In this document: in pieces, positions 6,358 to 37,993 of the stretch
Numbering within the stretch: position 1 is the first letter of the stretch
How the letters are laid out: each line of letters begins with the position of its first letter
Assembly: GCA_973895155.1 (NCBI GenBank)
Contig: OZ316894.1
Coordinates: forward strand, 372,001-436,000
Direction: 5' to 3'
From: Marsupella aquatica
Lineage: Eukaryota; Plantae; Marchantiophyta
Length of the DNA stretch: 64,000 nt
The notes under the pieces: model-generated
What the model was told of the DNA's origin: nothing
The model's database searches: none
What the model saw: only the letters and a program-made list of their open reading frames with translations
Translations under genes and position numbers: made by a program

Positions 6358-6836
6358 TCAGAGGAGGAAGCAGTGACGACTAAGAGGGGGGGAGAGAGCT
6401 AGGGTCGAAGCTGGCGCGTGGACTGAATGACTGGTGCACTTGCAAAGGATCAGCCCCCTTTTATACCCTGAGAGCTCGTCGATCGCCCGAAGCCTCCTCG
6501 TTGCTTATAGGCCGAACCTCTCACGCTTGCAGTGTACCAGCCACTCCGCCGGTCCGAGTCAGCGTGTGACAGTGCCCGCCTCCCGAAGTTCGTTATACGG
6601 ACCCGAGGGGGAGGGGCAGGGGGGCCCATTACACGATCGCAACCTGGTCGTGCGAATAGCGACGCGCCGCCAGCCCGAACATGAATTCCCGTTTATTGAC
6701 TAATGATTCCCTACTCATAATGGCTACCTAAATACTGTCGTTATGCTAATGATAGCGGCCTAAGATACTCCTAAAGCGCGTGCCAAGCATGGTTTAGACG
6801 GAATCACTCATTACCCGCCGTACCGGCGGCGTCACA

Positions 6837-11461: not shown

Positions 11462-14400
11462 GATTGAGGACTACCAAAGGAGGCAAAAAGTCTCCAGTCC
11501 TTTCACTAATCTAAAGGACTGCCAACAACCAAGATTAGCACATCTTAGGTAAAAAAGGCTTCATGACACACTTCCACAAATGTTGGGCACACTTCCAAGA
11601 GGTAAGGACTTCCAAAAAGTGTGGACACACTTCCAAAAGACTTGGCATGCAAGATCTAACCTTTCAATCTCAACTACTCAATCCTAGCCATCAAGGGATA
11701 TATGGCACATTCAGTGCTCATGGACTCCTATTAAGTGCTCATGGGGGTTTGTATGGTGCGAGGAAACAGGAGAAATTGACAGCGAGGTTAATGTTTGCTA
11801 GCGAGGTAAAACTAATGGTCAGAGTGGCAGATTGGGAGGATAGTGAGGTTTCTACAATAGAAATGAATCTTTTTTCCAGAATGGGATCATTCCATTCTAT
11901 GTCCAGCGAGGTCACTAGCCTTCAATCATTGACAAACCATATGAATATACACAAGTGAAACACCAGGCGGATATGAAAATGCATAGTGAATCAATGAACT
12001 CAGATATCAACCCGTTTTATAAGTCATGTTTCCAAAAAATGTACTGCCTCCAATATTTTGTCAAAACTGACAGTAAGTTTGAGTAAACATTGCAGAGCTA
12101 TCCTTTGATTCCCTAGAAAATCATAAGTCACTTGAATGACTTTCATCCGACTCTATATCATTCCTACTACTAGTATTGCTCTGGTCACTACTGAAATCCC
12201 GATCAGTTGACTCAGCAGACTCATCAACATATTGCTTAACAAAGCATGCCTCATCGTCAACAAAAGGCAAGCAATACAAATTTTGTTTGGCTCCACGATG
12301 TGACCTACGACCTTGCCTTCCCAAGTGACCACAAAAGCATTATCCGCCTGAATTGCCGATTTCTCTGCATAGCAAGGCAGAGTAAATGTCTTCTGAGGGG
12401 AAACAATCGAAGATTCTTCAACCTTCCTTCGAAGCCAAAATCTCTCTTCAGAAAACCAGTCGACAGGAGTATCTCTGAAATCAGGAACAAAATCAGAGCA
12501 ATATGAATGACAGATCCAATCAAAAGACAATAGCAAGCTTCACCAACCAATTGATTAAAGCAAGGGGATCTGGTATAAGCAAGAGGATCAGTACATTACT
12601 CCAGGTCAAATTCATCATCGCCATCCTTTGCATCAGGAACATTAGGAGCTCCATCTTTGTTTTTTGCACTCTTTGATCCTGCAAGAGAAAATTCATCATC
12701 TGAATCGAGGTCCTCCAATGTTTCAGTGAGGTCTTCAATTTTCTTGTGTCTCTCAAGAACACTCTTCAATGCCTTCTCCGCAGCACCATGGAGAACATCC
12801 CTGTCCTCGACCCCAACAACAAACCTCCCAGAGAGTTCTCCAGCTGAAAAAGAACTACCGTCTCCAATATTCCAATCGAGCACAATGTCTCTAGGCTTTG
12901 TGAGAAGCTCCATAAAGCCTGCATGAATCCAACAGATAATCGACAAGAACCAGAGAAAGCTAACTCTGCCCTGGTATCCCTTTTTGGATAACAAAGACTC
13001 AACATCGTCTTATGTGATGCATCTTCAGACGTTGCCAGAGGGACATACTTCGGGTCCTTTGGGATCTTCCCATTGAATTCAACTCGGCAAAAGACATCCA
13101 GGCTTAAGTTGCAAACCTGGAAAAAACAAAAAAAAATGTCAATTCATGAATCCAGGAAGGCCAGCGAGATCGCTGTCAAAAAAGCATACTAAATCCTGTG
13201 AAATTCAGTCAAATCTCACCTCAATGTTCATGTCTGGCATCCACATCGGGGACCCCAATAAAACGTGGTACTTTCGAAGATGTTTAAATTTGTTCCTCTG
13301 TTCAACAGCTGCAAAAAATTGCTTTGTGTGGTTAAATTCTCCACTGTGGAGAACGGCCACATACCCATCATCACTCAACATTGGCCTCATCACTCCAAAG
13401 AAATAGTAAGGGAGCTTCTCAACCCAGACATTCCATTGAGGAACTTCCACATCAGTAACACGAGGCCTCAGCCCAGTCGGAAGAGCTATGAACCCCAGAT
13501 GGGCACCGGTCCCAGTGTAAGGCTTCCCGTTTATTTTTAAGGGATTCGGGTGTTCAGAAGAACTTGAAATATCTGAAAGCCATTGATCCCCCTCCCCCAT
13601 CCAAGCAGGTCGAACCTTCTTCATACTTATCGAGTCAGCCGTCAAACGAAGATTACTCTTTGCAAGGAAATGTCTTCTTCCATCCAACTAGAGTCCATAG
13701 AGCCTCGCGACACCCTCTCGGATTGACACTTCTTCCTCATCAGAATCTGACAACACTTGAACCTTTCTCTTCTTCTTCAACCTCTGGGACCCTGACTTAT
13801 CACCTCCCGGTTTAGTCACAAGTTCAAAATCGGGTGACTCAGGCTCCACATGATCCTCCGGACGACCATTATTCACAGTCTGAACACTCTCGGAACCTGA
13901 AGACTTCCTCCGTTCTGGATACAAAAAGCAATCTAAGAGCCTTAGGATATGTCATAAACTTAATGAGAAGAGCAGCTTGGGAGAGATAAGAGAAGAGAGC
14001 TTGGGAGCAATAAGAGTATATACTTACTTTTCTTTCCAGAAAGCATAGAGCCATCTCTTGATACCTCTTTGGCAGCGTCTCTCTTCAATTTCCGAGGGCG
14101 GCTCCTATCCACACTCGGTGCCACCCCGAGGCATGCCTGCTCCATCGACACACAGCCAGCAAGTTCTACTTCCGGGTTGCACAATTTAGATTCTGTTAGA
14201 CGATGGCTATAATTCATACACCAACAACACAAGGATAATCTTTTCATGAGCCAATGTGGCTTATAAGGTGTTACACATTGGATGGTTATAACTACCTTCT
14301 CCTAGTCTCATGACTCTCTATATCTAGTCCCTATATACCCCTTTGTATCACTCTATGAGTTAGGGTTAAGTGTATTCTAACACTCCCCCTTGGTTACTTC

Positions 14401-14643
14401 AATAGAATAGAGTTAATCCTAATTCAGGGTATATTAGAACTTATAAACGACATGATCTCATTAAAAACCCCCTGCTTTCTTCTTTGGGGTAAAAAGAGTA
14501 TCACTATCTTACATGTAATAAGTTCGTTAAGTTGAGGGGACTGAGTATATGCTAAGTAGTAATGTGTCATTCTACCAGGTATTACGGGTTTAGGGTGATC
14601 GTAATAATAATGCCTGAAATGGGTAGTCGAGGGCATTTAGGTA

Positions 14644-17600
14644 CTAGGGAAAATCTGAGAGTTTGCGTACTAGGCCGATTCCTGTTGAGTGTGCTTCGTG
14701 CAGGACACGAGGTAAGGGCTTCGTGAATAGATCGGCGCGATTGTCTTTGGAAGGTATCCATTGAACGTTAATCTGATCACCGTGCTGTTCATGTGTATGG
14801 AAGAATTTAGGTGCTATGTGCTTAATTCGATCTCCCTTGATAAATCCTTTAGCAATTTGGTCAACGCAGGGTCTGTTATCTTCATAGATGATTGTTGGTT
14901 TGGTGAGGACTTCTTGACCGGTGGATCCGTGGATATGGTTGATAAGTTGGCGAAGCCATAAGCATTCGCGACTAGCTTCGTATAGGGCGATTATTTCCGC
15001 ATGGTTGGAGGAAGTTGTTGTCAGTGTCTGCTTAGCACTTTTCCAGGATATTGTCGTGGATCCTTGCAGGAAGACATAGCCCGTCTGGGACTTGGCATCA
15101 TCAGGATCGGAGAGGTAACCTGCGTCAGCGAAACCAATCAGTTCATTAGGCATATCTTTAGGAAAGTAGAGGCCAGTGTCAATCGTACCTTGGAGGTAGC
15201 GCAAAATTCTCTTGATACCGTTCCAATGTCTTATCGTTGGCTGAGAGCTGTGGCGAGCCAACAAGTTGACAGTGAAGGAGATATCCGGGCGTGTCTGGCT
15301 TGCCAGGTACATCAAGGCGCCTATAGCTGAGAGGTAAGGTTTCTCTGGGCCCAAGATCGGTTCTTGTTCAGTTCTGCGCTTGTACATATCTGCGCTTGTA
15401 CATATCTTTGGATGAATCTAAGGAGCGAAGTTCCATAGGTGTTGTGACAGGGTATGACTTGTCCATATTAAATTGTTTTAACATCTTCCTGGTATATGTG
15501 GATTGGTGAATCAGAACGCCATTAGGTAAGTGTTCGAATTGAATGCCAAGGCAGAAAAGGGGTGTCCCAATATCCTTCATTGCGAAGATGCCTTTGAGTG
15601 TTGTAATTGTTTGTTCCATAAGAAGCTTAGTGCCCATAAGATTTACATCATCTACATAGATTGCTATGATAATAAATTCAGTTCCAGCTCGTTTTATGAA
15701 TAGGTAGGGAGCGATGTCCTCATTCACGAAACCAAGTGCTATCATCTCAGCACGGAAGCGCTTGTACCAAATACGGCCACTCTGTTTTAAGCCATAAATG
15801 GATCGAAGAACCTGTACAGCAAATGCTTTCGCTGGTTTTTGAGGTTTAGGTATCCTTTGATGAACGAGGTTTACCTCTGTGGGTAAACCCAGGGAATTCA
15901 ATGAAGAATTCGTTTGATGTTCACCATGAGCAATTTGCTTTTCATGTACGTTCTGATCCTCTGATAAGTGTTCAGTTATTTGTTCAGGTACCAGTGGGCC
16001 TGATTGAACAAGGTAATCCTTAAGTTCCTGTGTAGGAACAATCTTATCAATACCCGACTGTATGTCCGGGGATAGAGTAGTTTGATGCTCCCCCTTAATG
16101 TGGAAGGTTACTCTTTGAATTAGCTCGGGTGGAGCTTTCATATGGATATCAGTGTCGAGTATGCCATAAAGGTAAGCGGTAACAACGTCCATAAGGTGCA
16201 TTAGGAGTTTGTGTAAGAGCGAAGGCAATCAAAAATCTGTAAGTGATAGAGTCCATAACCGGGGAATGAGTCAAGTCATAGTATTTTCCATAGATTTGTG
16301 TATAGCCTCTAGCAACAAGTCGGGCTTTATAGCGGACTACTTTGCCTGCTGCATTTCGTTTACGTACTAGTGTAATTCTGTATCCTGTGAGATGTTGTTC
16401 AGCACGTACAATTCGAATCTGTCCAAATACTTGGCGGCTTATGAGTGAGTCGAGCTCGGAGTTAATGGCAGAGTCCCATTTAGGCCAATCGGGACGTTGT
16501 TGGGCTTCTTTAATATTCCGGGGATCTGGTAAGTCACTGGATATATCTTGGGAGATAAGGAAGGCAAAATGTTCGTCAGGTTCAGTTATATCTCTAGGCC
16601 ATAAGTGCCCGATATGCATGTAATGTATTGATATTTCTTCGTTATCGACCAGTGTAGTTCCTGGTGAACGTAAGTAGAGTTGTGTTGATACAGGTTTCTT
16701 CTGTCGTGATCTGGAGTCTTTGGATCCAGGGGGTCTGCATCTCTTTGCCTTGGGGGCATGGTCTGTGGCTCGGGTATCAGGCATGGAAATTCTGGCAGGG
16801 ACGTTAGCTGCTTCTATATGGGATTTCGTGGCAGCAGCAGCATCATTAAAGGCGTCTGGTATTTTTTCCATGTTTCGGTGAAGATTCAGTATGCGCTTTA
16901 CTTTGTCATTTGTGAGTTGTGTACGGGGGTCATTCCAGAATGGGTCCTCAGTTGTCCATTCTAACGTAGGGGTTAGAGTGTTCTGTTTGTAGAGTTGTGC
17001 AGGGGTAAGGAGTGGGGGAAAAATATCCTCACAGAATTTACAATCCTGGTATCTAGCTCGGAACACATCAGCTGTAGTTGGTTCGAGGTACCTGACGATT
17101 GAAGGAGAGTCGAATCCCACATAGATGTCGCGTTGCCGCTGTGGTCCCATTTTAGTATGTTTAGGGCCCAGAATTGGGACGAGAACAAGACAGCCAAACA
17201 TTTTCAGGTGTGTAACGTCTGGTGTAGATCCATATGCTAGCTGATGTGGTGTGTAAGTGTTGAAGGCCGATGGTCTGTATCTTAATAATGCGGCACCGTG
17301 GAGTACAACATGTCCCCAAGCTATAAGTGGCAATTGTGTCTGTAATAATATAGGTCTTGAGATAAGTTGTATACGTTTGATCATTGCTTCTGCAGCGCCA
17401 TTTTGGAAATGTACATATGGTACCGAGTATTGAATGGTGATACCCAGGGCTTGGCAGAAATCGTCGAAGGCAGGTGATGTGAATTCACCAGCATTGTCGA
17501 TTCTTATTGTCTTGATAGCTGAGTCAGGGAATTGAGTTCTTAGGCGTATAATCTGAGTTAGTAGGCGAGAAAATACCAGATTTCGGGTGGGATTAGTGAG

Positions 17601-19327
17601 ACCGAGGACCATTTCGTGGATGAGCATATCATCACTAGAAAGAACCGAAATGGTCCACTTGGTGGGTCTATTGGGCCGCAGACATCCACGTTTAGTTGTG
17701 AGAGGAAATCAGGTATGTGGTAGGTGTTTTTAGTGGTGGCAGGCATTGTAATCAATTTGCCTTGTGCACATGGGATGCATGTCTCATGTTTAGATGATGG
17801 ATGGACTCCTTGGGGAATGCCCGTGGTGTTCTTGAGGATTTTGTGGTACATTCCTGGGCCAGGGTGGCCAAGGCGGAAGTGCCATAGTTCTGTGGGTGAT
17901 AAGGGTTGGGCCTGTGAATGATAAGCTGTAATTTTGGTGGCGTATACTCCAGGGGGAAGAAGTGGTGAGGTCTCTAGTATGATTGGGCCAATATCAGTTT
18001 CCTGAAAGATCTGCAAAGCATCTACTTGGTGGTCAGGTGCAGAGCGAATGTGGAGGTTGTTTTGGCGAATATCGTGGAAGCTGAGTAGATTTCTGGTTGC
18101 AAATGGGGCGTAGATGGCAGATTGGATTTGAATAATTGTGCCATTTGGGAGGGTGAGTTCAGCGGGTCCGTGTCCTTCCTCTAATTGGTTTATACCTGTA
18201 ATGGTGGTCACAAGTCTATTGGATGGGGATATGTACTGAAAGTATTGTTTATCTTTTAATATTGTGTGAGAGGTGCCACTGTCAAGGATGCAGGTATAGG
18301 TGTCGGAGGGTGAGTTGGGGTTCTTTCCCTGTAATACCATGTGTATCTCTGGTGGGGGCGTTGCAAGTGTGTATTGTGAGAGGTCTTCATCAATCTCAAG
18401 ATGGTTTGCAGCTATGGCCGTGTTCGTGGTTTGTAGAGAGGCCTGGTATAGTTTGACCAGGTGGGATTGGGCTTTACAGTTCTTTCTGATATGACCAGGT
18501 CCGCCGCAACGGAAACACTTAGCCTGATTCTTTGTGGGTGTGATGTGTGCAGGTATGTTTTGAGTATAATTTGGCTTGCGTTGCCAAGGATTTGTGGTTG
18601 GCTGTGTGGTGCCGTTGTCCGTGCGTGCTTGGCGTCTCCAATTAAATATTTTGAAGCAGCCCGTATTTCTTCTAAGAGGGCCATTGTTGCCTTTGTAAGA
18701 GGGATTACCTCTGTTGGTACTCGTGAATTGGGTTTCAGTCCTGGGTAGCATACCTGGTGGTCTTTCTCGGGAGTTCTTAAGGAGAAGGAGATCGTTCTTC
18801 TCAGCCAGGAGCATAACTGCAATTAGATCAGAGAATTGGGTGAAGTGGCGTTGTCGGTAGATCTGTGACAATTGCATATTCGTTGCAGAGAATGTGGAGA
18901 GTGTTTTTTCGATCTTGGCTGCCTTGTTGATGGGTTCTCCACATGTTGCGAGTTGAGCAGTTATACGGAAGAGGGCACTGTTGTATTTTGCGATAGTTGG
19001 GTAATCTAGGACTCTTAGATGAATCCATTCGTTGCGAGCGGCTGGAAGGGAGATTAGGCAGAGGTGATCGAACCTCAATTTTAGAGCATCCCAGAGGGCT
19101 CTCGGGTTATACTCTGTGAGGTATTCAAGTTGTAAATCAGCGTCTAGGTGATGGCGGATAATGTACAGGGCCTGGGCCTTCTCTTGTAATGTTCCATAAT
19201 TGTCCCCCAATAAAATATCACCGAGGCCTTTCATGTTGAGAACAATTTCGGCATTCTGTGCCCAAGATAAGTAATTCTCGCCGTCTATTACGAGTGACGG
19301 GAATTGGAGCTTCTCCAAAGTTGTCAT
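14644..19327 (-). pseudogene. pol: copia gag-pol (gag, CCHC, protease ILDSGT, integrase, RT YVDD, RNase H) in four frameshifted ORFs
   Basis: ORFs 17558-19327, 16149-17627, 15368-16228 and 14644-15387. The last frameshift is a 16-bp tandem duplication TGCGCTTGTACATATC at 15375-15406. Confidence 0.93.
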
Positions 19328-19483
19328 TGTCAGGTTAATTGAAGTCTAGTAGCCCTGGGGAATTGGTCGTGGTCTGTGTAAATCAGGGTGCGGGCGGTAA
19401 AGAATTGTCGATGACAATTGGAAGTTATCAAAGAGAGAAAGAGGGAAAAAAACATAAGCTCGAGAAGATTGAAGGGCATAAAA

Positions 19484-19496
19484 CGTGCTAATAACG
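19484..19496 (-). promoter_or_regulatory. half-tRNA-Ile primer binding site
   Basis: The plus strand CGTGCTAATAACG matches the tRNA-Ile(AAU) anticodon arm and abuts the 5' LTR, which is the priming mode known for Bianca elements. Confidence 0.8.
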
Positions 19497-21167
19497 TGTT
19501 AGACGATGGCTTTAATTCATACACCAACAACACAAGGATAATCTTTTCATGAGCCAATGTGGCTTATAAGGTGTTACACATTGGATGGTTATAACTACCT
19601 TCTCCTAGTCTCATGACTCTCTATATCTAGTCCCTATATACCCCTTTGTATCACTCTATGAGTTAGGGTTAAGTGTATTCTAACAGATTCACTAATAAAA
19701 AATTCTGGGACCAAGCCACGATTGATCTTTTGAAGCGCAGCTTTCTCTGTGACATCCAATGTCAGTGACCAATTCTCCAAATCTAAATACCAGGGACAAT
19801 GCAGCACCTCCCATTCACTTATCTTCCGCAAGGGTTCAATGTCCTCAATAGGGTACATCGAGTACTCCCCAAACTTCTCACAACTGGAATCATCTCTTGC
19901 ATATTGAGCCCATTGAGAGAAACATGCCGGGTAACACCACCAAAACGATCTATTTGCCACCTCACGATCCACAAAAAACCTATAAACATACCTTTTTGCC
20001 CTCCGACGGAAAGAAACAATGTCAATCTTTTCCCCAACTTTTGGGGTCCAAATGCTCTTGAAGAACCTTACCTTAACCCGCTGCAGGAAATCTTCTAATT
20101 CATCATCAATTTCAGCAAGGAGGGATGCCTGACTATTCTCCGGGGAAGAAAGAATTCTAGATTCAGGGACAGTGAGAATAATCTCAGATATTGCTTCACT
20201 TAGTAAGCACCTCGCAATGGACTCTACCTGTTCCCATGTTGCCCATCGATGCAACCAGAGCTTGGTCTCACTATCCGAAAATTGAGATGGATGAAAATAT
20301 TGTTTATGCAACTCTGGTCTGCACTGTGCTTCGAGAAGAGTGCAACGGAGTTGTGGACTCAAAGAAGTTACCCCGGTGAAAAGCCTTGCACAATCAAGGC
20401 CACATGAAACATTCCCTCTCCCCTTATCATCCGTCCGCTGAGCTTCCTTCCTTTCTTTCTCACAATAATTATGCATCTCAACACATTTCTTGAAGAAATC
20501 CCCAAAGTCTGGATTCAGGAGCGGGGCAAACTTTGGAACTTTGACATTCCAGTCGGAGAGTTGCTCCTTCATCATATCTTGAACTGCAATGTCTTTTGCA
20601 GCTTTCGACAGAGGTTCGCCCAATTCCTCCTTTAGTGCAAACTTCTTTAACAAGTCAGCAGTTTGCGAAGCTATATTTGCAGCAGAAAGAATATAAATGC
20701 ATGCATCTAAGGTCATATGCTTCGAATACCACGACGACTTCTTTACGTTTTGCGTCTTCTGCTGAAATAACTTGAAATTTTCTGGATCAATTAAATCCTT
20801 GTAAACTGAAAGGTCCGTGCTCAGGATCTTCTTGACCCGATCAACTTCCAACACCCATGAATTCTCGACATGGCATTGTGTCAACCTGACAATGAGTATA
20901 TATTTCAGCAATCGGCAAGAACAAATTGTGCCCAAAAATGAAGCAAAAAGATCAAATGTGTCCAGGCTCTTCTCACCGGTTGAGAGCATGCATCGCAGAT
21001 TCAATCTGCACGAAAGTATCCTTCTCTCCTTTGAAAATCTTCGAGACAACTCGAGGATGATACTTCACATCGTGAGGATTCTCAACAGCAAGTAGGTTCC
21101 ACGAATAGAGACGGTGATTGCCATCGAAGGGTATAACCACCGTGCTAGCAAATAGTAAATAGATATT

Positions 21168-21320
21168 CTCATACGAGCCAATTTTGCCTCGTACAAGCAA
21201 AATTTTGTCTCGTACGAGTAAATAAGTTCCTCGTATGAGCATATCTATTTACTCGTACGAGTTTCTGTTTTCTTGTATGAGTTTCTGTTTTCTTGTATGA
21301 GTATTTTTTTTTCTTGTATG
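21168..21320. repeat. left subterminal ~20-21 bp tandem array with palindromic core CTCGTACGAG
   Basis: About 8 units with cores such as ctcatacgag, ctcgtacaag, ctcgtacgag, ctcgtatgag and cttgtatgag. Confidence 0.85.
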
Positions 21321-21600
21321 CATTTTAGTTTCTTCTCTTCACGGTATGTAGCGTCCATATATGCAATAATTGTGCAGACAATATTATGGCGGGTCCCACC
21401 ATTGTACAACATCAGAGGAAATTTCTTGACGATTTCACACAAGGACTCCAATATATTGCCACGAAATATGAAGTCGAAACAAAGTCATACAATACTAGCG
21501 CCATTGTATTATACAAAAAAACAACACTTTAAGAACTCACACTTCTGCCCGTTAGAAAAGACAAACTACAATTGTAGCTATTCAACGATAAAGCAACAGT

Positions 21601-25412: not shown

Positions 25413-25587
25413 GGCCTCAAAAGAGGGACATGCATTTGCCCCGCGCGAAATGAAATATGTTTATCATGAGATTCGAGTACGAGAAGTAAACGTTCCATTC
25501 TCATTATAGAGTCGTTATAGATTTGGACGCACTCCATCAATGACGTTTTGTCATCTTACCAACGGCAGGATTCGGGTTCATAGTTAC

Positions 25588-25735
25588 TAGCGCCTGGCGC
25601 TACCTCTAAGTGTAAAACACTCTTGGATGAGGACTACGAATGCCAATAATAATAGCGCCTGGCGCTACCTCTGGGTGCAAACATTCTTGGGTGAGGAGTA
25701 CGAATGCCAATAATAATAGCGCCTGGCGCTACCTA
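25588..25735. repeat. ~64-65 bp tandem repeat (2.3 units), each unit carrying the palindrome, upstream of the transposase
   Basis: The unit TAGCGCCTGGCGCTACCTCT..TCTTGG.TGAGGA.TACGAATGCCAATAATAA is repeated. Confidence 0.9.
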
Positions 25736-28700
25736 TTTCAATGGACTTGAAAACATTCAATTGAAGGATCAGTACAATAACACGATATAGTACGTGTCAT
25801 TAAGTTGGCACGCTTGAAGATCTTCACTGGATCTTTGCGAATCCGATCCGCCCGGGTCCAAATGTGTCAGAGAGGAAGCGTCCATGAAAGTTATATCAGA
25901 GGGGCCTCTTCGAAGTGGGTACCCAGGACCAAGTGCGAACTCTCCTTATATCTAGTCGTTCCCCTCGGATGTCCTCATTGTCAAGCCATTCTTCACTGAG
26001 TCGCAGTTGTGGCTCATCTTTCGGGCGCGTGGTTCCCGTTCTCGCTTTCGGGTCCAGTTGTTCTTTTTGGCTTTCCTGCGCGTTCTTGTTCTCCTTCTCG
26101 TTGTCGTTTCTCATTCTCGTCCTAGTTCACGCTGTTGTCCTCCTTCACGTTCTCGTTCGCTCTTCTTGTTCTCGTCCTCGTCCTCACTTTCAATGGCACC
26201 TCCATGAGGGAAGGCAAAGGATGAGGCACTTGTCCCGAGCGACACCGACAGGGAGACCCCCGCATCAAATAGCTTACCGCCTCGGCCGAATGCCGAGAGG
26301 ACGACGGTTCCAATATCGAAGAAGGGGAAACTCATCTCAAAGACAAAGAATGTCCCAACTGTGGGTCGCAGCGAAGGATCCAATCGGCCAAAATAATGCG
26401 AGCGGCCCGACTTCTGTTCCCTCTAGGGATATCGCCATTGCTTCAGTCGGCCGTCCAAGAGCCGACACTATGTGCACGAGAGTCTCCGTATCTTCTTCAT
26501 CTACTGAGAGTGATCGTTCTTCGAGCGGGGACTCATCACCGAGCAGGCAAGGATTTGCGTGGTATGGATCGAGCGACTCGAATGACGACTCCGATGCGTA
26601 CAAGCCAAGTTGGTGGGAAGACTGATTTCCCGTTGTCAGGGCGTATCGTTTGAGTGTTGGAGAGACTTGGAGGATCCATCAAGGTTGATAGGATCTGTTT
26701 CCACTCGTTTTTACTTATAGAAAACCCATACCGTTCCTTCCTCGTATGCCGGATTTCTAGTGTAATGTAACATTTTGTATTCGAATGGCACAGCCGTTCG
26801 TTTTTACCTCGGTGTCATTGCTTTTGAATTCAGAAGACCAAGCTTTAATTTTCGGTTCTGCTCCCGTGTTTGCATTGTATTTCTGAATGCGAACTTGATC
26901 TATTTCTTTGAAATGGCCGTAAAGACTCGCTTGCTGTCAATGTTTTGACTAGCGTCGGGCGCTATTATGAGAAACAAAGTGTCCGTAACACTGTCGTGAC
27001 AAGTCTTATCTCTAAAGTGTTTTTGATAGCGTTGGTCGCTATTAATGAAAGGAATTACAAGTCAGGAGTTATTTTACTTTTATTTCAACAAATTCTGTTT
27101 AATTGATGTGAATGTTAATAGCGCCAGGCGCTATTGTAATTCATTGGAATATTCGTTGAATGAATGGGTTCATGTTGTCATGTTTGTTGTCATTGGACTC
27201 GGATTTCGTCATTTATTTGAATACTAGCGCCGAGCGCTAATAAAGTTGGTTTGTCTATACCTGCATAAAATTGGAAAATTTATAGACAATTGTGTTGATA
27301 TTACTGCCCGTAGCTACATTTGAAAGTATGTTGTATAATAGCGCCTGGCGCTATCCAGAACCACCGACACTGATGTGGTTCCAACGGTCACTTTCCAACG
27401 GTAATATTATAGTAGATTGAGGTTCACGGAACCCTTTTTGCTTTTGTCTGGGATGAAAGTCCAATCGGAGAATGCCATCTGTACTTGGGACCGTTGGAAT
27501 CGAATGGCTGGTTCTATTGTATCGGTGTTTAATACGAGGTGGAGATCCTTCGTTTGGGATAATTTAGTCCGTCTACGCGCTCAGACCTCGGACTATACGA
27601 GTTTGTCAAGTGCGTATGTGCGTCCTTTATTGGTCACGTACATTTTGAGACGTGATCGTCACAAGAACTGCACGGCGCGTACGACAGTGCCGGGTGGTCG
27701 AGTCGCTCTCCACGGCAACTTTTGGCTGGGTGATACGAGAATGGGGGAGGCTGATGGTGGTCATTCTGAGTCCTCTCAGTCTTCGTTCGCTGGTTCAGTA
27801 TACACCCATCGTGTCACTCGATCGACTGCGTCCCTATCGACTTTTGAAGCTGAATCTGCACAGCCCTTCCCGAGGTTAAGGAGAGGGAGAATGGACCCTA
27901 AGGAGGTCTCCATGGGTGAAGTCAATGACATAGGCTTATCGATGGACGAGGTAATATCAAAGCACGCGTTGTCGTTCGGGAAGGATTTTCGAGGAATCGA
28001 TAAGGAGCCACCTCGAATTCCTCTTTGTAGATTGCTCCCCATGGAGGTTGTTCGAACATTACAGAAAGAAAGTGCATCGATCGAGAAGTTGAAGGAATCA
28101 TTCCGTGTCACCGGGTACAACTCGCGCATTGGGATGCCTTTCTACGTTCAGCCTGTGAATGCCGACGGGGTTTCGCAGATATGCACCACCGAGATCCGGG
28201 ACTCTTGGGATCCAATCTGGGTCGCAGAGAATAACAAGTTTGAGGAAGAGTGTGATGCGGACCCAGCGTTCCATATTCTAAAAGATAAAATGTTTTGTGT
28301 GTTTGACGGAAATCATCGATTGTACTCGTGGTCAATCGTCACGAGGGAGAATCCGGACAACTTGAAGTATCATCCTCGTGTGATTTGCGTCATTTTCAAT
28401 GGTGACAGAGGTTCGCTAGTTGAGCTCGAGGCGTCAATGCACACCGTGAACCAGTAAGTTCTATTCGTTAACTGTTGTTACCCCTGTCATTCATTTTTGA
28501 CCAAACATGCTTTGCGAAAGTGTTCATTCCCCAATTTTTGCTAGCGCCCGGCGCTACTAATTCCTTTTCATTACATCCAGGCTTGGACAAGCAGTCGTCG
28601 AGCCTTCCTGGATTCTTGACGCGAACAAAATTTCCCAAATTCTGTCGCGTGATCTTGATCACTATAAGCCACTCATCGACAGCGCGAACATGGCAAAGTT

Positions 28701-29858
28701 TGAGGCGATCCGAAAGAAGATGAGAAAGGGTCTTGGTTTACACATAAAATGCCACAGGATGCTCTCATCTACATTCTGTGTGTGGACAAAATCAAGTCTT
28801 ACTCAAATCAATTTAAGTCTGATATGGCTTTAGCCAAAGCTCAAGGGACTCCTTGGTCAGAAGAGGAGACCACAAAGAGGCATGAGGCAATGATGAAGGA
28901 GGCGACCAAAGATTGGTCGATCAAAGTGACGAAGATCACCCCTTTACTTCATCCGGATTTTGGAGATTATTTGGGAACCTGTGCTGAGATGTATCCCGTA
29001 ACTGAGAAGAACAAACGGGAGAAGAAGCCAGACACAGTTGTATGCACAATGGATCGAGCCAGGTTGTTTACTGCTGTTTCATACCTGGATCCAAAATTGA
29101 GGTGCACCCTTCTAGTAGCCCACTGCACTCCCGAGATTCGGAAACAGTTTTTCCATCCTGCAAGTGTCAACGACGAGCCTGTGAAGTAGTGGTGCCATAC
29201 ATGGCATACTTGGAATTCTGTGGAGGGAATTGCAACTGGAATGCTTCACACTTCCTTCAAACAGATTTCTGACCGGATGCCGGCTGACCGTCTCACAAAG
29301 TCTGGGTGTGAGTCAATGGAGGCCGTGCTTAAGATCATTCTCGATGAATTCAGAAACTTTGGGGATCTTGTCAAGGCAAAATTCTTCAACAACTTGTGGT
29401 CTTCCAAATATGCGGACAAGGAAGATTACACAACGGAACCGGAAGAGAGCCAAACGATATCTATACCGGTTTTACATGTGGATGGAGCTTAGATCTCCTG
29501 ACACTCTGTGGGCATACCCGGCTGCATTTCAGAAATGGGTGTGGATATACAGTAAACTTGAAAAGCTAAGATTAAGTGCAAATTTTTAAATTTTCTGGTC
29601 GCTAAAGTTAGAGTTCACTTAAACTTACATTTTTTACGCCTTTTAGTAAGATACGATCTTACAATCTTACGATCTTACGAGTTACGAACTTACGCGGTAC
29701 TAGAAGATTACGCCGTTGCAAGACTAACAGGCGGAAAGTACACTATGAGCCGCATCGCGTGAAATCTTACGACCAGAGCGAATCACTCTCTGCATGACTA
29801 TTTCCGACGCTTACAAGCATCGCTCCGCTTCATCTGATCAACATCCACCTCAAGATTT

Positions 29859-31343
29859 GTGAACCCGAGAGCTATGGCAACATTCGATTGTGATGAGGAA
29901 TACCTCATTGATTCTGTGGCAATTCCAAAAGCGCTCGTCATCAGGCTCCCCAGGACCAAAGAGAGCTATGAATCATTACGCCAATCCTTGAGAGAGCTTG
30001 GACTGGAGAAATTATTACGACTACCATGGACTTCAGAGTTGGACACCTACCTGGAAGATTTTGTCAGAGGATCAATTGTCGCCTCACCTTCACCTACTTC
30101 TATTCGAGGACGGCCCAGCAAATGGACCATAGATCACTTCGCGTATGCTTTTGGATGTTCTGCTGACGGAGAAGCGCTACTTTCGCCCAAGGATGATACA
30201 TCAACTCCATACTTTTCAGGTACCCGGAATAAGAGAAATGGCTGGAATGTGAGTCAATGCAATCATTTGGAGCTAAGAATTCTTTTGGAATTTTTGGTTC
30301 CTATTTTTCATCCCAAGAAACCAACTGTTTGCTCCATTTCTCTGGCCAATACCATCATCGCTGCGCACAGTGGTAGAGTAAAGGTCAATTGGGCTTTGGT
30401 ATTTTTCAATGTTGTGAGGGATCAACTTCGGACATTAAGGGCGAATCAATCAACTCCACTGCAAAACTATCTAGCCCAGCTATACTCCGCTTTTGATTGC
30501 TCACTTCCTGAGGAGGTGATGGAGAGAGATTATCTTATGGAAGAAATCTCCAAGTTGTGGGAACAAGATGAAATTATGCCTACTACAGCAGAAGAGGCAA
30601 ACGTCATATCGCCAGCTTCTCCGGGCAGCCGGGCAAGTCTTCACAATTCAAGTCCTTCAGATGAGGTACCCATGGACCTAGAAGCACTTACTACAGATGC
30701 TGAGATGATAGACTACTCAAGGATCCCCTCACCACCCCCTTCCACAGGAATTGGGAAGTTTCCTATTCGACTTGCACAGGACGACTCCAATCAGACCCTG
30801 ATCAGTAAGGTGTGTGCTTTGCTCAACTGTGACTTTCATTCACTGTACGAGACCATTGAGCAATTGCGCCATGACGCAGTGACACAGGTTCCTCCTTCTG
30901 CACTTTCATCTCCGGATCATGAGAATTCGCCATCATCTTCACCTCCAGCAGAAATTCAGCTCTCCCCAGAGGAACTTTTTGCTGTTAAGACTAGGGCTCA
31001 AATCTCAGTTCCATCCCCTATGGACTTGAAGGAGACCTCACCTACAAATTCAGAGCCTCCTCCCTGCTCATCTGTAGAACATCACTCCTGCCTTAAGATT
31101 GTCCATGAGTTAACTACTATGTTAGGCTGCCGTTCAGAAGAAGTCACCTCCATAGTCGATGAATTTCTTGATAGACCTGAACCTTCACGCTCCCCACTGC
31201 CATCCTCTCAGTTTCCCTATAGTCCTGATTCAAATTATGAGCCTACTGATAGTCTACCTCATAAATCTTTGCACCCCACACAACACTTCTCTCAGCAAGG
31301 ATTTCCCTTTTCTGAAGATTCTGATCCTCCATCCACACCCTAA
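29859..31343 (+). CDS. 494-aa ORF within LTR C; N-terminal region resembles gypsy accessory (Athila ORF/plant-mobile-domain-like) proteins
   Basis: GLEKLLRLPW..LEDFV..SIRG..WTIDHFAYAFG..RNGW..EFL..NWA aligns by eye with the family A (FEHLASLPW..EFV..LRG..LT..IFGLP..NGF) and family B (GLEAFVRLPW..EFV..YG..LT..VFGLP..KNGF) ORFs. Confidence 0.75.
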   Translation: MNPRAMATFDCDEEYLIDSVAIPKALVIRLPRTKESYESLRQSLRELGLEKLLRLPWTSELDTYLEDFVRGSIVASPSPTSIRGRPSKWTIDHFAYAFGCSADGEALLSPKDDTSTPYFSGTRNKRNGWNVSQCNHLELRILLEFLVPIFHPKKPTVCSISLANTIIAAHSGRVKVNWALVFFNVVRDQLRTLRANQSTPLQNYLAQLYSAFDCSLPEEVMERDYLMEEISKLWEQDEIMPTTAEEANVISPASPGSRASLHNSSPSDEVPMDLEALTTDAEMIDYSRIPSPPPSTGIGKFPIRLAQDDSNQTLISKVCALLNCDFHSLYETIEQLRHDAVTQVPPSALSSPDHENSPSSSPPAEIQLSPEELFAVKTRAQISVPSPMDLKETSPTNSEPPPCSSVEHHSCLKIVHELTTMLGCRSEEVTSIVDEFLDRPEPSRSPLPSSQFPYSPDSNYEPTDSLPHKSLHPTQHFSQQGFPFSEDSDPPSTP

Positions 31344-31368
31344 ACCCTAAACCCTAAACCCTAAACCC
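31338..31368 (+). repeat. (CCCTAAA)4 plant telomere-type repeat
   Basis: Four exact units; they supply the TAA stop of the 494-aa ORF. Confidence 0.9.
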
Positions 31369-31619
31369 TTCACTTCTCTCCCTATGATATTCCAGTCTGT
31401 GACTCACCAGATCAGGGATTCGAAGGAGTTAATGCAGCCTTGCGATCCAACCCCAACCTTGTTGCAGTTGTCACTTCTTCTACCCAGACTCCTAGAAACG
31501 CTATCATCTATAAAATGGAGCCTAGAACACCAGAGCAACAAGTCCAGAAGTATGTCACCACTTGTAAGGTTATGCATGCCAATACACCGCCTATAAGTGA
31601 GTTCTAGAGGTTTTATTAT

Positions 31620-32312
31620 TTGAAGAAAGCAGAGGCTAGCTACATTTTTGATCTCAGGATGATTGGTACCTCTCGCGTGGAGTTGGCTCAGTTTGATGAG
31701 TACTGGACAGATTCAGTCTACTTCCGACCTATACTGGCCGTTATGTTTCTACAAGGTGATGTTGAAGTTGATGACCCGGATTTAATCTTGGCCTATTTGG
31801 GAAATATAGCCGCTTATGCTTTAGATTTCTTACTGATTTTTCTAAAACAGAGCAACAAGTCTACTACCCCTGATCACTCATATATTCCCACTGGACCCAA
31901 GGTTATCCTTACTTCAACCACTTCTTATGAAGACAAGCAGCGAGTATGGAACAACATCAGCACGCAGCAGCTAACAAACTACACTCGCTACTTCCGGGAT
32001 GTGCAGTGGAAATTACGATCCTCCTACAACAAGATGCTGAGTACAGAGATGTTCTTACAATTCTACCCATCTGTCTACGCCAACTCGTGCAATTGTTTAG
32101 ATGTCATAGGCATCTTACGGGAAGCAATCAGAATCAACCAGTGCTTTTTGGAGAAAAGGATGCCACTTATGTATTGGGGAAGACAGATGAGATGTCTACC
32201 TTACATCCGGGATCAACCTCACTGTGATGAAGTAAGGGAAGCTATCCGGACGCGCACTATTTGGAAAGTAGAAATTAGAGAACCAGAGGATATTCGACAA
32301 CCAAAAGATTGA
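31620..32312 (+). CDS. 230-aa ORF or downstream exon within LTR C, function unknown
   Basis: Open frame with globular-looking composition. A possible intron GTGAGT(31598)..CTCAG(31657) precedes it. Confidence 0.55.
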   Translation: MKKAEASYIFDLRMIGTSRVELAQFDEYWTDSVYFRPILAVMFLQGDVEVDDPDLILAYLGNIAAYALDFLLIFLKQSNKSTTPDHSYIPTGPKVILTSTTSYEDKQRVWNNISTQQLTNYTRYFRDVQWKLRSSYNKMLSTEMFLQFYPSVYANSCNCLDVIGILREAIRINQCFLEKRMPLMYWGRQMRCLPYIRDQPHCDEVREAIRTRTIWKVEIREPEDIRQPKD

Positions 32313-35300
32313 AGCAGACCTGCAATTTTGTTAAGTGTCAGAGGCAGTTTCAGTTACTGTACCCCGCTCGATTTTATTAGACATGTTTTAAGATTCCAAA
32401 ACTCATCAAGTCTTTTTCAGTAGACAGCTTATACATAGGAAAACACATTGGCAAAGTCTCAATCACTTTGGATTGTAGTTAGAAAGTTAGAAATACTTTA
32501 GTTTGCTGAGTTTTCTATATCGTTAAGTTCCCGCGACTACGACTTTACGATCTTACGATCTTATGATCTTACGAACCTACGCTTTTACGAATTACGATCT
32601 TACGATACTACGGTAAACTTAACTTAGTTAGTTTTAGACCTTTTCATACTTAGTTTTCATTTTTGACTTCTTGAGGGTTTTGAAGGGTCATGACTCTTCA
32701 ACCCCCAAGGGTTTTTCCTCGATGTTTTTCACTATAAGTACCTTCCACTTCTAATAAGCAGCAGTAAGTAAGTCAGACATGACTTGTCGCCCCTTGGTGT
32801 TGTCCTTGTGATTTTGGACTTTTTGAATTCAGAGCAGGCATCCTAGGAGGGACTTACCTCCTTCTTGTATTTTGGAACCCAAATACTTGAAGTAAAACCT
32901 CAGTTATGAATCTCGTGAATTATAATGTCAGATTCCGCTTTGGTGACACATTGTAATCTCACAAGTTCTTAGAGTTAACCCATTGAGTTTAAGTTGCATT
33001 GGAAATGATGTTTTCACCTTCATGTTGCTTAGTACCATCTAAATGCTGAAGTATTTATCCTTTTAGATCTTGACTAAGTATCACTTAGGAAGAAAGGTCA
33101 AGACATGTTGCCGGCATTTTAAAAGGATACTCTAGTATGCAGTTTAGATCTGAAAAGCCGTGTGGATTTGAATTCCCTTAAAGTCATTCCATTATTGCTT
33201 ATGTCTAAGGAGTAACCTTGGTATATTCCAAACTCCCTTAAGCATACTCTAAGAGATTTTTCCTTGTGTTTTGTTAATTGCAACCTTTTGCTTAATTGAT
33301 GGTTATATGATGTTGAGTTATCATCAAAAACTGCTCACCGCTGTGGAGCGATCTTCAAAGTACCTAATTAAAGTAGTCAAGATTGATTACTATGTGTGAC
33401 ACAACAGCTTAAAGCTTTATTTTTAGTTTATTACATCAAACCAACCCAATCTTGTTCTTAACGGGAACGAATACCGAGTTTAGATACGTAAAAGAGTTCT
33501 TTTGGTTCTCTATAGCAAACTACAATGGGTGTCTATCGAAGAGGGAGACGCTCTTGCCAACCTTTATTCGATGTACCCAACGGAGGGAAAGTTTCCACCA
33601 CGTTCATTGTCGGAGTGGGAGAGACTTCACTGTCCCTGGTACCTGGACATAGACAAATGGGATTTACCGTTCGACGAAGCTGAGAAGGATGCCTTCATGA
33701 AGTTGCAGAAGTCCCAGATCCCTGCCAACTATGTGTCTGCAATGAAGCAAGGTCTCCAGTCTGATGTTGACGAATCTGCATCTGAGTTACAAAAGAATTG
33801 TGAGTCTCTTGTCATGCACGTTGACCGAAGCCATAAGCCAAGAGCAAAGGCGAAGAATGAGTCAGCTCACCAAGTGACTCCACAAGGTCCTTCAAGAAAA
33901 GTGAGTAGTCTAAGCGCTTTTTGGTTACTTGTTGGCGCTGCTTATGCAGGAGTTTCATTAGGAAATTCCTTTGATTAATAGCGCCTGGCGCTAGTCTGAA
34001 AGGTTGGACTCATTCAAGTTTCTGTGCCTAATAGGAGGTTGAAAGTCCGACACGGAGGTCCCGGCTGCCGAAGGGAAGAATGATGCAACTCCTCAGGCAT
34101 CGGAGGCAAACACTGGAGCTCAAGAAACCCCGGATCAAGGGACCCCGGATGGTGCTGGAAAATCCATTGTCCCTCTTGACGCAACTAGCACGAAGAAAAA
34201 GAAAAAGAGAGGCGCCGGTGAGGATAGAGCAGCATCATCTACTCGAGACGTTATTTCCTGTGGACTCCAGAGAGATGTCGGGAATTTTAAGTGAAGGTGT
34301 TCTAGACACTGTTTTGTGGAGTCCAATTTAAACAAATTTTACGATTCGGTATTTAACAAGGGGATTAAGCCCATGTGGGTTACTAAAGTTGAGGCCTGGG
34401 GAAAGGAATTGGTAAAGTCAGGAGACAGAGAGAAGGGAGTAATGCATGGCGGAAAAGAGAGGGGCTTTGGTGTGGATGCTGGTTTCATCTATATTCCCAC
34501 TGGATTAAAACCAACACTTCTTGATCGGAAGGTTCCCAAGTGGAACCTTCAGGATTACACTATTCCCAGCTCTTTCTTCCAAGCCATGGAGCCATTCCTT
34601 GCAGACGATGGCCTACTTGCAATTTTACACAGAGGAGACTATGATCAGGTATCTGAAGTGATTGCGGCTTGCCAGGATTCTAAGTGTTTCCAGTGTATTT
34701 CAACCCACCATGTGGTCATGACTACACCAATGTATAGGCCCCGATCTGATACTCAAGTAACAATTCCTCTTGCACATACTAGCGCCCGACGCTACTATCA
34801 GCATTCGCAATATCTACAATTCACTTATCTTTTGTAAGGATGAATGGTTTACTAGCGCCAAGCGCTAATATATGTGTCTGTTTTCTTATACTGCCTTCAT
34901 TGTGAAACTGTGTTGCAGATATTCACACTTACTCTTAATATATTTTGCCGCATTTCGACAAAGGGAAGGGTCCCAAAAGACCCCAAGTTCCGGCCACTAT
35001 CGAATGAAGAAGACCCTTCTGTCACTAACATTATTGGGTTTTCGTTGCCGCGACATGACCCGACTCCTGAGCTCCAATTTGCAGGAAATTCACGCTTGCC
35101 TGTGGGTTTCATGCAAACTATTTTGGAATTGGTGACTCTTCCTGGAGATATCGTTATGGACTGGACAGTAGGTTCCGGTAGTACGTTTGTGGCTGGAGAT
35201 TATTCTGGTCGCTTTGTTGTTGGGCTGGAAAATCGGCCAGAGTTTGTAGATACTTCCGGTAAGGTCTTCCTTGATCTTGATCTCCTAAGAAGATTCCTGG

Positions 35301-36207
35301 AAGTAAGAAGCAGGACAGGCTCCGTGCTATTCTAAATTTTGATTCGGAAGACGAGGATGAGGGTGGCAATGCTTCTCAGCAATCTAAAGATGATGAGGTG
35401 TCGAAGAATGTGGTGGACCTTGGATCTGGAGATGAGGACAGTGAAGAGTCAGAAGAGTAATTTTCTTTAGCTTCTTTCTCTCATTGTATACTTTTTTCCA
35501 AAGAACTCCTCTACTCCCTTTTGTCTAGAAAATTCGCCCGATTTCCCGACTTCGACTAAAGAACTCCAGTTCAAATTCTCAGGTCAGAGTGGAATCTTCG
35601 GAGGCGTTTTCAACTTCGAAGGAACGTCTCTAGGAACGTTGTACAGACCCCGGAGAAGCCATTTGTTCTCCCCTCTTATGCTGAAAAGGCGGCACGATGG
35701 GCAGATTCAGTCAGGACGCTTACTTGGGAGAGTAAGGGTCTTAGACTCAGGAGAGGCTCAGATAGAAAGTTTGTGCATAATCACTTCGTAGATGATATTG
35801 CAAAATCCAAGTATGTGGACGACGAAGCAGAGTCCACTGATAGATCAGAAAGTAGCGGCTCTGAATCGGGCTCAGAGTCGAGTGGTGGTTGTGGATCTGG
35901 TCTTTAGTTCTCCTTGTTTTATTTACCCGTTTATGGAGAACGACGACACTCAATAAGAACGCCGTGACGTGTCGGATTAGAGTAGCGCCCGACGCTATTA
36001 CTGTAGCCGGTAGTTCAAAGAGGTTTTTATTTTGTTTTTTTCCTTATAGCGCCCGGCGCTAGTATAAATGTACTCAATGGCCGCTTCACGTCCAATATAT
36101 GTGACAATATTTTCATACCCTTCGGTGTCTTTTTTTGGGTGCACATTTGCTGGTATGAGTTTTGCTGTTTGCTGTTTGCTGTCACGGAGAGATCCCCCGC
36201 CATTGAA

Positions 36208-36756: not shown

Positions 36757-37356
36757 CGACTGATAAGGAGAAGAGAACCACACGAAGGGAAGACAAGGAA
36801 TTGGTACGGTGAATGCAAAGGAATCCAAAGTCACATGTGTTGGGAATCCAAAGTAAGAATTCAGGGGAATCCAAAGTAACCCATACTACAGTGTACTTGA
36901 CAGTGACAGGGAATATCAGTATTTAACACCTTCATGTGAAAGATCCATCAACAAGATCTCAACTCTGTTAATCCCACCAGCACTAACGTTAACGAAGCTC
37001 CAGTTAACGTTAACTTGGAGTCTAGTTAGTATTTACCAACAACTCGGTCGGATGAAATGTACATTCAACTTCAACGGGTTGGAGACAATTAATCTCTAGG
37101 TGACCAACTTGGGTTGGGTGTCCGTTGACACTAACCATTCTCCAAAAAAAAATATATGCCGATGGAATAAATAAACCAAAGTATTTATGAAATGTACTCT
37201 TTCAAATCAAGTTAACCCTTCCAACGGTAATATAATTTTGAATCTTTGGTGCACGTAGATGCACTTGGTCACCATTTGGAACGAGTCTGGATCTTTTTAA
37301 TGGAAAAATGGACAAACCCCATACGTTGTTTAAGCCCAGTATTTAGACAGTTTTTT

Positions 37357-37993
37357 GCCAGCGACATCGCTGGCCAAATCACTGTAAACCCTAAACCCTT
37401 AATATGATGTTTGTCCATTTAAAATGAGCTCTTAATGCTTTCTGAAAATCTTGAATACTCTACAGAATCTTTGAAACTGTTAACCCCCTCTACTAAAAGC
37501 TCTCGGTTTAACTACTATGTTATGACATTTAGGAAATATATTAGGTTCTGGATTCCTGAATTGACCCCCAAACTGAAATAAAAGTATATGCAAATTTCTG
37601 CGGCTTCAGGCTAGCGGTATCGCTGGCCTTATTGAAGTTTTATGAATGGTTTAATTACGGGACATCTCAGATTCCTCTCTTCTGTTTATATCATGTTGTT
37701 GGTGAACATGATGTTTTCAAATATCAAAAATATAGATCTTAAACACTGAAAACTTACCTGAATTATGTCTAGCGAGGTCGCTAGCAAAACTATTTTTAAA
37801 CACAAAGCTCCAAGTTCATTTAGCGTCCTAGTACACCCCAACTATACCCCAAGTTCAGGAAATGTGCTAGTATATCCCTCACCATACTTCTTGTCAAAAT
37901 AAAATAGGCCATTTAATTAAAGAGTAAACACTAAAATTCTGGTTCATAAGCACCTCATTATTCGAGAAAATTTAGGCTAGCGATATCGCTGGC
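37357..37993. repeat. palindrome family AGCGA-N2-TCGCT of the outer element
   Basis: GCCAGCGACATCGCTGGC (37357), GGCTAGCGGTATCGCTGGCC (37609), CTAGCGAGGTCGCTAG (37769) and GCTAGCGATATCGCTGGC (37976). Also CAGCGAGATCGCTG at 13162 and a degenerate copy at 11903. Confidence 0.85.

Follow-up and report, generated by a model that had tools for sequence, protein, structure and literature searches.

A gene that occurs twice at one locus, one copy nested in the other and each accompanied by its own short palindrome, raises the question of what such sites are for and whether protein and site have diverged together. The locus lies in a stretch of 64,000 nucleotides from the liverwort Marsupella aquatica (contig OZ316894.1, positions 372,001 to 436,000 of the forward strand); the whole stretch is called the window here, and all coordinates are positions within it. 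The inner copy is the cargo gene of a DNA transposon of ~15.07 kb (15,070 bp, 21129-36198), hereafter the inner element, which carries a transposase gene and, facing away from it, the cargo gene with its ParB-like, middle, and methylase-like parts. This element is inserted into the ParB-like exon of a second, minus-strand copy, hereafter the outer gene. An earlier note on this DNA had claimed that each gene has a palindrome of its own, in the homologous intron too. This holds, and each of the two palindrome types was found to be confined to the non-coding DNA of its own lineage, with no mixing in the window.

Distribution of the two palindrome types

The inner-type palindrome, AGCG-N5-CGCT (consensus with flanks TAnTAGCGCCnGGCGCTAnTA; sites of TAGCGCCnGGCGCTA type), occurs 17 times, compared with 0.41 expected occurrences, and none of 100 shuffles reached 17; all copies fall within 23199-36060. 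The outer-type 12-mer AGCGANNTCGCT, with a flanked consensus of roughly GCYAGCGAnnTCGCTRGC, has exact copies at 13163, 37360, 37771, and 37979 (four versus 0.04 expected; 0 of 100 shuffles reached four). When one mismatch is tolerated, seven matches are found (1.28 expected; 0 of 100 shuffles reached seven), the additional copies being those at 11905 (AGCGAGGTCACT), 37613 (AGCGGTATCGCT), and 25264. The last of these lies within a coding open reading frame (ORF) of the inner transposase and, with 1.28 matches expected, was taken as a chance match. The enrichment of outer-type sites that the earlier note had listed is thus upheld, but its coordinates were 1-4 nt too low, and the site it gave as 37609 is the one-mismatch copy at 37613.

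Alignments of the sites bear out that the AGCG/CGCT arms are common to both types, and that the inner bases differ and the spacing differs by 1 bp. The information content is zero beyond the palindrome cores of either type; they are therefore discrete sites and not copies of a longer repeat, except for three inner-type sites in a 64-65-bp tandem array. In a palindrome census of the window (arms of 5-6, spacers of 0-4), the inner and outer types rank first and are the sole palindromes that recur in unrelated contexts, the remaining recurrent ones being one position in repeated copies of a single retroelement. The sites are rich in CG and CHG. A scan of 11000-38500 against Rfam returned no family, and a reading of the palindromes as RNA hairpins was rejected, as a spacer of 1-2 nt would be too short for a loop.

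The two types are separated by the boundaries of the insert: all 17 inner-type sites and none of the four exact outer-type sites lie inside 21129-36198, where the one-mismatch match at 25264 is the only outer-like copy. The insert contains 26 copies of the inner half-site word AGCGCC/GGCGCT, and the outer segments contain none. Around the outer gene, four sites are located upstream (37360-37990; three exact, and the one-mismatch copy at 37613), one in the intron (13163), and one, degenerate, downstream (11905-11916).

In the inner element, three sites (23199-23372) are located in a gap of the transposase gene that is probably an intron, and eight between the divergent transposase and cargo genes. 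Three of these eight (25589-25730) belong to the tandem repeat (array 25588-25734), and the other five are located upstream of the cargo gene (26951, 27028, 27120, 27226, and 27340; 26951-27352). Single sites follow the ParB-like exon, in the gap behind it (28543-28555), and the ORF 33484-33978, directly at its 3' side (33980-33992). Two more are present in the shared intron (34781 and 34854) and two in the last 291 bp, downstream of the cargo gene (35984-36060; 140-215 bp short of the element's right end). No inner-type site falls in a homology-supported exon, and none in a 3.9-kb stretch (29587-33483) that interrupts the cargo gene; all 17 occupy the 4,432 of 15,070 bp that are neither (p ~9e-10, on length alone). 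The leftmost 2 kb of the element contains no full palindrome and a single half-site (21496).

The base composition of these segments also varies. The CpG observed/expected ratio is ~1.0 in the non-coding DNA of the inner element (0.98 with the palindromes removed) and 0.73 in its exons; it is 0.59-0.67 in the 3.9-kb stretch, the outer upstream region, and neighbouring repeats. The high non-coding value is a weak hint of low germline methylation or young age.

The intron shared by the two copies contains, in each of them, sites of that copy's own type only. In the inner gene, it spans 34757-34918 (plus strand, 162 nt) and separates ...SDTQ from IFTLTLNIFCR; in the outer gene, it spans 13117-13219 (minus strand, 103 nt) and separates ...MNIE from VCNLSLDVFCR. 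The identical protein alignment position noted earlier was confirmed, and both introns are of phase 0 with GT..AG ends. Each holds the palindrome of its own family, 13163 in the outer and 34781 and 34854 in the inner copy. We infer both introns from the splice signals, the restored frames, and the relatives P0022, P0028, and P0046, which read across the junction; many relatives from genomic contigs stop just past it. Contigs of four public runs (kind not stated) contain no splice joints at the introns, and they are uninformative on expression. At 34756, the last exon base before the inner intron, the window has A and all contigs from the four runs read G, a synonymous difference that turns CAA|GT into CAG|GT.

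The inner transposon and the nested gene copies

Homology to the outer gene breaks at 36187 and 21128, and the split reading frame of the outer gene resumes across the insert, which is flanked by a 9-bp target-site duplication: GCCATCGAA at 21120-21128 on the left and, read at the junction, GCCATTGAA at 36199-36207 on the right (both plus strand; 8 of 9 positions identical). The terminal inverted repeats are imperfect. The left one (21129-21178, plus strand; GGGTATAACCACCGTG...) was aligned to the reverse complement of the right one (36149-36198, minus strand), and the two ends, both of which start with GGG, can be aligned across some 40-50 bp, with frequent mismatches. CTCGTAYGAG-like subterminal repeats, seven in number and with a period of 20-22 bp, lie at 21168-21301 (plus strand), and a mirror copy is present at 36150; these repeats are distinct from the palindromes and are the better candidates for transposase sites.

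The putative transposase gene (21604-25460, minus strand; ~1,000 aa) consists of the ORFs 25460-24573, 24675-23629, and 22908-21604, and a gap of 720 bp (22909-23628) probably represents an intron. Its translated tail contains a CxC...CxH zinc-finger-like pattern, which we take to resemble a SWIM finger. A protein language model places the central ORF among clusters of Mutator-like elements (MULEs; 0.93, 167 shared features), which serves as a lead only, and Pfam returned no family at E <= 5 for the three ORFs. A MULE is therefore a plausible assignment that draws mainly on the 9-bp duplication, together with the imperfect terminal repeats and the language-model lead. The earlier statement that a MULE splits the outer gene accordingly stands as to a transposon with a 9-bp duplication, with the MULE label lacking a Pfam match.

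The inner cargo gene (27723-35907, plus strand) was delimited by tblastn against the outer copy and by a match to PF01555 (E 3.4e-8). Its pieces are a ParB-like exon (27723-28454), a middle part (28704-29586), a further exon (33484-33978), methylase-like exons (34295-34756 and 34919-35335), and a tail (35545-35907). All pieces have paralogous minus-strand counterparts in the outer gene: a 5' piece from the ParB-like exon to ...MFSVFNGG (36885-36187), a middle piece starting with FDGNHRL... and continuing into a helical middle domain (21128-19691), and a 3' piece with the methylase-like domain (13951-12121). Between the last two, a copia-type long terminal repeat (LTR) retrotransposon is inserted (14194-19685, minus strand). 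Its LTRs of 189 bp are 99% alike, its ends read TG..CA, and its 5-bp duplication is GATTC. The methylase-like piece contains an in-frame TAG at 13688-13690, where the relative P0017 reads through, and a frameshift is located near 12920. Because of the two insertions, the in-frame stop, and the frameshift, the outer gene is dead. A fragment of gypsy-type reverse transcriptase, RNase H, and integrase (9552-11470, minus strand) abuts its 3' side and may have removed that end of an outer element.

The 3.9-kb stretch within the inner cargo gene (29587-33483) is absent from the outer copy, contains no palindrome, and probably consists of nested foreign repeats. It includes a plant-type telomere repeat, (ACCCTAA) x4.7, at 31337-31369. 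The 8-mer TACGATCT forms two equally oriented arrays (29652-29694 and 32545-32612), and the ~2.9 kb between them may be a further nested element; the ORFs in it (29838-31340 and 31608-32309) belong to no known family. In all four public runs, the summed contig depth at 32822-33532 is 5-40 times that of neighbouring bins, which points to a very high-copy short repeat just upstream of the exon 33484-33978. The contigs of each run cover the locus with 343-1,114 pieces at 90-100% likeness, and diverged copies therefore exist elsewhere.

The window as a whole is eukaryotic and transposon-rich, with gag, reverse transcriptase, integrase, copia, and gypsy domains. Nested GC-rich retroelement copies that are 80-90% alike, with long coiled-coil-like ORFs, occupy 38000-64000 and 1-8000, and an 18-bp tandem repeat is present at 38705-38920.

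Relatives and probable unity of the cargo gene

The family is diverse, the first methylase-like exon having 39 relatives (representative clusters) among 1.84 billion representatives. One relative, P0013, joins the ParB-like and middle parts, and another, P0033, joins the tail of the middle part to the methylase-like part (E 4e-9). The three parts are thus likely to form one gene of about 1,000-1,100 aa, as far as can be judged from the sequences. A search of longer proteins found none containing the outer middle ORF or the ParB-like exon, which is weak evidence only.

In a tree of the first methylase-like exon, built from all 31 rows that passed a 90-residue minimum with the exon-2 row left out, the inner copy groups with P0014 (100/99) and the outer copy with P0017 and P0026 (92/92). 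The two copies therefore belong to different clades of a larger family, in agreement with the earlier view that they are paralogues.

Scans of prokaryotic genomes and viral contigs yielded no relatives, and a metagenome scan yielded four short loci. Three of these (L001-L003) have little non-coding flank and no recurring palindrome. The fourth, L004, is a weak match (E 1e-5) that carries TCTGCGATCGCAGA three times (439-452, 602-615, and 3171-3184); it was set aside as probably unrelated because the DGNHR-type match is weak and the repeat core, GCGATCGC, is the cyanobacterial HIP1 palindrome.

Domains of the cargo protein

The ParB-like exon has 13 relatives, and the sole named one, which is also the nearest named relative, comes from the liverwort Riccia sorocarpa and is described as a hypothetical protein. 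Invariant residues of the aligned N-domain sequences include P-x-I-P-x-C-R-L and DGNHR, the latter in 14 of 14. Arginine-containing nucleotide-binding signatures read GERRxR in ParB, GGCHR in sulfiredoxin (Srx), and DGQHR in DndB; DGNHR is of the Srx/DndB type and not of the GERR type of ParB. One member out of 15 matches DndB (E 0.066), and a DGQHR domain is matched at E 0.2, both weakly and below threshold, and a search of its profile against sequences of the PDB found nothing relevant. The AlphaFold2 model of the N-domain has a pLDDT (predicted local distance difference test) of 84. When this model was compared with 48,161 chains by VIA-align, 16 chains reached Z >= 2, and the top eight all belong to the ParB/Srx superfamily. 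They include KorB (Z 6.8; root-mean-square deviation 3.1, 95 aligned), PadC (6.5), the plant sulfiredoxin AtSrx (6.2), and pNOB8 ParB-N (5.3). The leading Foldseek matches are likewise ParB, Noc, KorB, and Srx, all with E of at least 0.09. The models thus suggest a ParB/sulfiredoxin fold for the N-domain.

For the middle domain, matches to thermonuclease (E of at least 0.047) were dismissed as noise. Residues 318-370 of the liverwort relative P0013, in the middle part, gave a sub-threshold match to SAWADEE, a chromatin reader (E 0.0036), and no such match was found in the window copies.

The C-terminal part of the inner protein matches PF01555 with 34.2 bits (cut-off 26.7), over profile positions 163-219 of 221; the scores of the relatives are below the cut-off. 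In this match, the S-adenosylmethionine (SAM)-binding motifs X/I at the C-terminal end are retained, and D-W-x-x-G-x-G is present. The closest sequences in the PDB are beta-class enzymes, namely DpnA (1.5e-3), M.PvuII (2.5e-3), and CcrM (8.9e-3). The catalytic motif (D/N/S)-P-P-(Y/F/W) is found in none of the 31 aligned members. At the position of motif IV, all 31 read (L/I/F)P(T/N/S/H/L/C/K)(G/S/N/D), i.e. IPTG in the inner and LPTG in the outer copy; in the model, this position follows strand 48-52, near CcrM residues 30-34, the mapping being approximate. For the confident half of the P0028 methylase-domain model (residues 1-155), the best Foldseek match is CcrM (E 1.4e-3, prob 1.00), and VIA-align gave Trm14 (Z 9.1), M.MboIIA (6.5), M.BceJIV (6.2), CcrM (5.9), and M.PvuII (5.6). 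The N-terminal half is accordingly modelled as a Rossmann-type methyltransferase fold, which is generic and not specific to DNA methylases.

Possible role of the palindromes

What, then, recognizes the two palindromes? We give an even chance to the proposal that they are family-specific landing sites of a dimeric DNA-binding protein encoded by the element, most probably the cargo protein. The proposal draws on the symmetry of the 13-21 bp sites, their exclusive occurrence in non-coding segments of the matching lineage, the separate repeat at the element ends, the ParB fold predicted for the N-domain, and known analogues. The locus would then represent two diverged lineages of one transposon-borne accessory gene, nested, each with its own palindrome in its non-coding DNA. 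The cargo protein would load as a dimer at these palindromes, as ParB and KorB do at parS and operator palindromes, and loading would restrict the mark to its own family. Such marking would serve to control the chromatin or expression of these copies; anti-silencing appears likeliest, by analogy with VANC, the accessory protein of the VANDAL transposons of Arabidopsis. As its catalytic motif is lost, the methylase-like domain would serve to bind DNA or SAM without enzymatic activity, and the different inner bases and 1-bp change in spacing would keep the two lineages from cross-reacting. A more far-reaching version seems improbable to us: in it, a eukaryotic transposon recognizes itself by means of a bacterial-style ParB/parS system that it has adopted. 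A ParB-fold nucleotide switch would let the dimer load at the parS-like palindromes and spread over the element, the dead methylase domain would shield the element from silencing, and sister lineages would avoid cross-reaction through changed inner half-site bases and a spacer altered by one base.

Several observations weigh against the landing-site proposal. The sample is one element per lineage in one window, so that co-divergence amounts to two data points. The inner palindromes are linked just as closely to the inner transposase, which could be the binder. That the outer gene resides on a transposon of its own is a candidate interpretation: a search for the ends of such an element gave no match to the inner terminal repeat above the shuffled background, and no second transposase was found in the 64-kb window. 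On the protein side, the fold scores of the N-domain are middling, and the Pfam ParB models give no listing at E <= 1 for the exon or for 15 aligned members. The middle domain has no relative in Pfam, NCBIfam, or the PDB sequences, and no helix-turn-helix (HTH) was identified in it. The C-terminal half of the P0028 methylase-domain model has a pLDDT below 50 and is unreliable, and the one-gene architecture is deduced from two partial relatives, P0013 and P0033.

The closest rival makes the transposase, and not the cargo protein, the binder of the palindromes, which would act in auto-regulation or anti-silencing, as AtMu1 reportedly does. The transposase is encoded on the same inner element, with three palindromes in its own probable intron, and the AtMu1c transposase alone binds its cognate elements and leads to hypomethylation and activation, according to a 2026 preprint (10.64898/2026.08.24.746577). 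In that same source, however, binding peaks at the terminal inverted repeats, whereas the termini of the inner element carry the different, CTCGTAYGAG-like repeat, and the first 2 kb at its left end offers only the half-site. Outer-type sites, moreover, persist with no transposase gene for the outer copy in the window, and we regard this rival as possible but on the unlikely side. Host-factor sites acquired by the transposons, such as promoter or enhancer elements or elements related to methylation, would fit the clusters upstream of both cargo genes (26951-27352 and 37360-37990) and between the divergent genes, as well as the CG/CHG-rich sites and the CpG ratio of the inner non-coding DNA (~1.0 versus 0.73 in exons). 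A host site is nevertheless unlikely to differ cleanly between two paralogous lineages; the palindromes are also missing from the remaining 49 kb of the window despite the many other transposons there, and they occur in introns and 3' of genes as well. We therefore find a host factor unlikely.

Short palindromes are typical methylase targets, and a very unlikely alternative is that the methylase-like domain is active, in the manner of a type II modification methylase, and the element writes N6-adenine or N4-cytosine marks on itself at these sites. The retained SAM-binding end of PF01555, with its D-W-x-x-G-x-G, would suit this, and self-modification has been proposed for the algal counterparts in two reports (PMC12477816; 10.1101/2025.02.11.637652). 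Motif IV, however, is lost in all 31 aligned members, the Pfam match is limited to the end of the profile, and the conserved core of the outer type has few adenines. A symmetric site of 15-21 bp is, in addition, longer than usual methylase targets. It would surprise us most if the palindromes had no function, having arisen through local duplication or repair and then spread inside each element. The three sites in the 64-bp tandem repeat are clearly of duplication origin, but the remaining 14 of the inner type and every outer-type site have unrelated flanks and share only the core, the inner sites avoid exons, and a symmetric site is kept in both lineages.

Comparison with known systems

Arabidopsis VANC is the only case in which the self-recognition of transposons and its diversification are understood at the molecular level. 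The target of VANC21 is a short motif concentrated in the introns, the intergenic regions, and the non-coding termini of the VANDAL family to which it belongs; other families have other motifs (Hosaka et al. 2017, PMC5735166). The locus described here shares with VANDALs an accessory gene beside a transposase, on an element that is here putatively Mutator-like, and a motif in the element's own non-coding DNA, partly in tandem repeats. Its motif pattern, with sites in own non-coding DNA that differ between related families, is thus of the VANC type, as judged from two elements only. The VANC motif is, in the same account, a 9-nt oriented word; here, the site is a 13-21 bp palindrome and the protein is ParB-like and methylase-like, so that the likeness would be one of functional analogy only. 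The locus would accordingly offer a second, unrelated architecture (a ParB fold with a methylase-like domain devoid of the catalytic motif) with a VANC-like site pattern.

The bacterial proteins and sites of the ParB/parS, Noc/NBS, and KorB/operator systems resemble the cargo system in the predicted fold of the N-domain and in symmetric sites of similar length that occur in several copies on the encoding replicon. They differ in having a GERR box where the cargo protein has DGNHR, which is presumably closer to the sulfiredoxin and DndB signatures, and the cargo protein has no identified HTH and no Pfam ParB match. With the beta-class N6A/N4C methyltransferases (CcrM, M.PvuII, M.MboIIA, and DpnA), the cargo protein shares the C-terminal SAM-binding motifs and a Rossmann-type N-terminal half, whereas their (D/S/N)PP(Y/F/W) is absent from 31 of 31 cargo members.

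Accessory genes of the ParB-like and methylase kind have so far been described on algal giant transposons. On red-algal Plavaka elements, a ParB-like accessory gene is located beside inverted-repeat arrays and is accompanied by a PF01555 gene, and binding of accessory proteins to the element's own DNA has also been proposed there (Petroll et al. 2025, 10.1101/2025.02.11.637652). These genes, PAG2 and PAG3, which occur on red-algal giant Plavaka, Mutator, and Zisupton elements, resemble the cargo gene in encoding a transposon-borne ParB-like protein associated with inverted repeats and a PF01555 methylase-like protein. On the algal elements, two separate genes are involved, one of which fuses the ParB-like domain with a 2-oxoglutarate (2OG)-oxygenase and the other the methylase with a SET domain, and the repeats form tandem arrays beside PAG3. 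The present cargo, by contrast, apparently combines both parts in a single SET-free gene that has lost the catalytic motif, and its sites are spread over all non-coding segments. In Ectocarpus, Sola1-1_Ec32 encodes a 1104-aa ParB-like and DNA methyltransferase protein for which binding to, and modification of, the encoding element has been proposed (PMC12477816), and fusions of ParB-HTH with Dam-type domains are described from chlorophytes and chytrids (Iyer et al. 2016, PMC4738411). The present gene shares with these the idea of a eukaryotic transposon that carries two such domains in a gene pointing away from the transposase. The transposon superfamily and the host lineage are different, the parts of those papers available to us describe no palindromic sites, and the chlorophyte fusions use a Dam-type methylase and not one of the PF01555 type.

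Our literature search, which lay outside supplements and subscription papers, found no report of ParB-like/methylase accessory genes on Mutator-like elements of the land-plant lineage. If binding is true, the locus would offer a simple system in which to follow how protein and site evolve together, and orthogonal DNA-targeting modules might be derived from it; the nested lineages form a ready-made specificity contrast between two palindromes that share their AGCG/CGCT arms. The idea and both domains are already known from algae, and the functional counterpart from the VANDALs of Arabidopsis. New are the lineage of the host, the type of transposon, the apparently single-gene architecture of ParB-like and methylase-like parts with family-wide loss of the catalytic motif, the presence of sites through every non-coding segment, and the nesting of two lineages with related but distinct palindromes.

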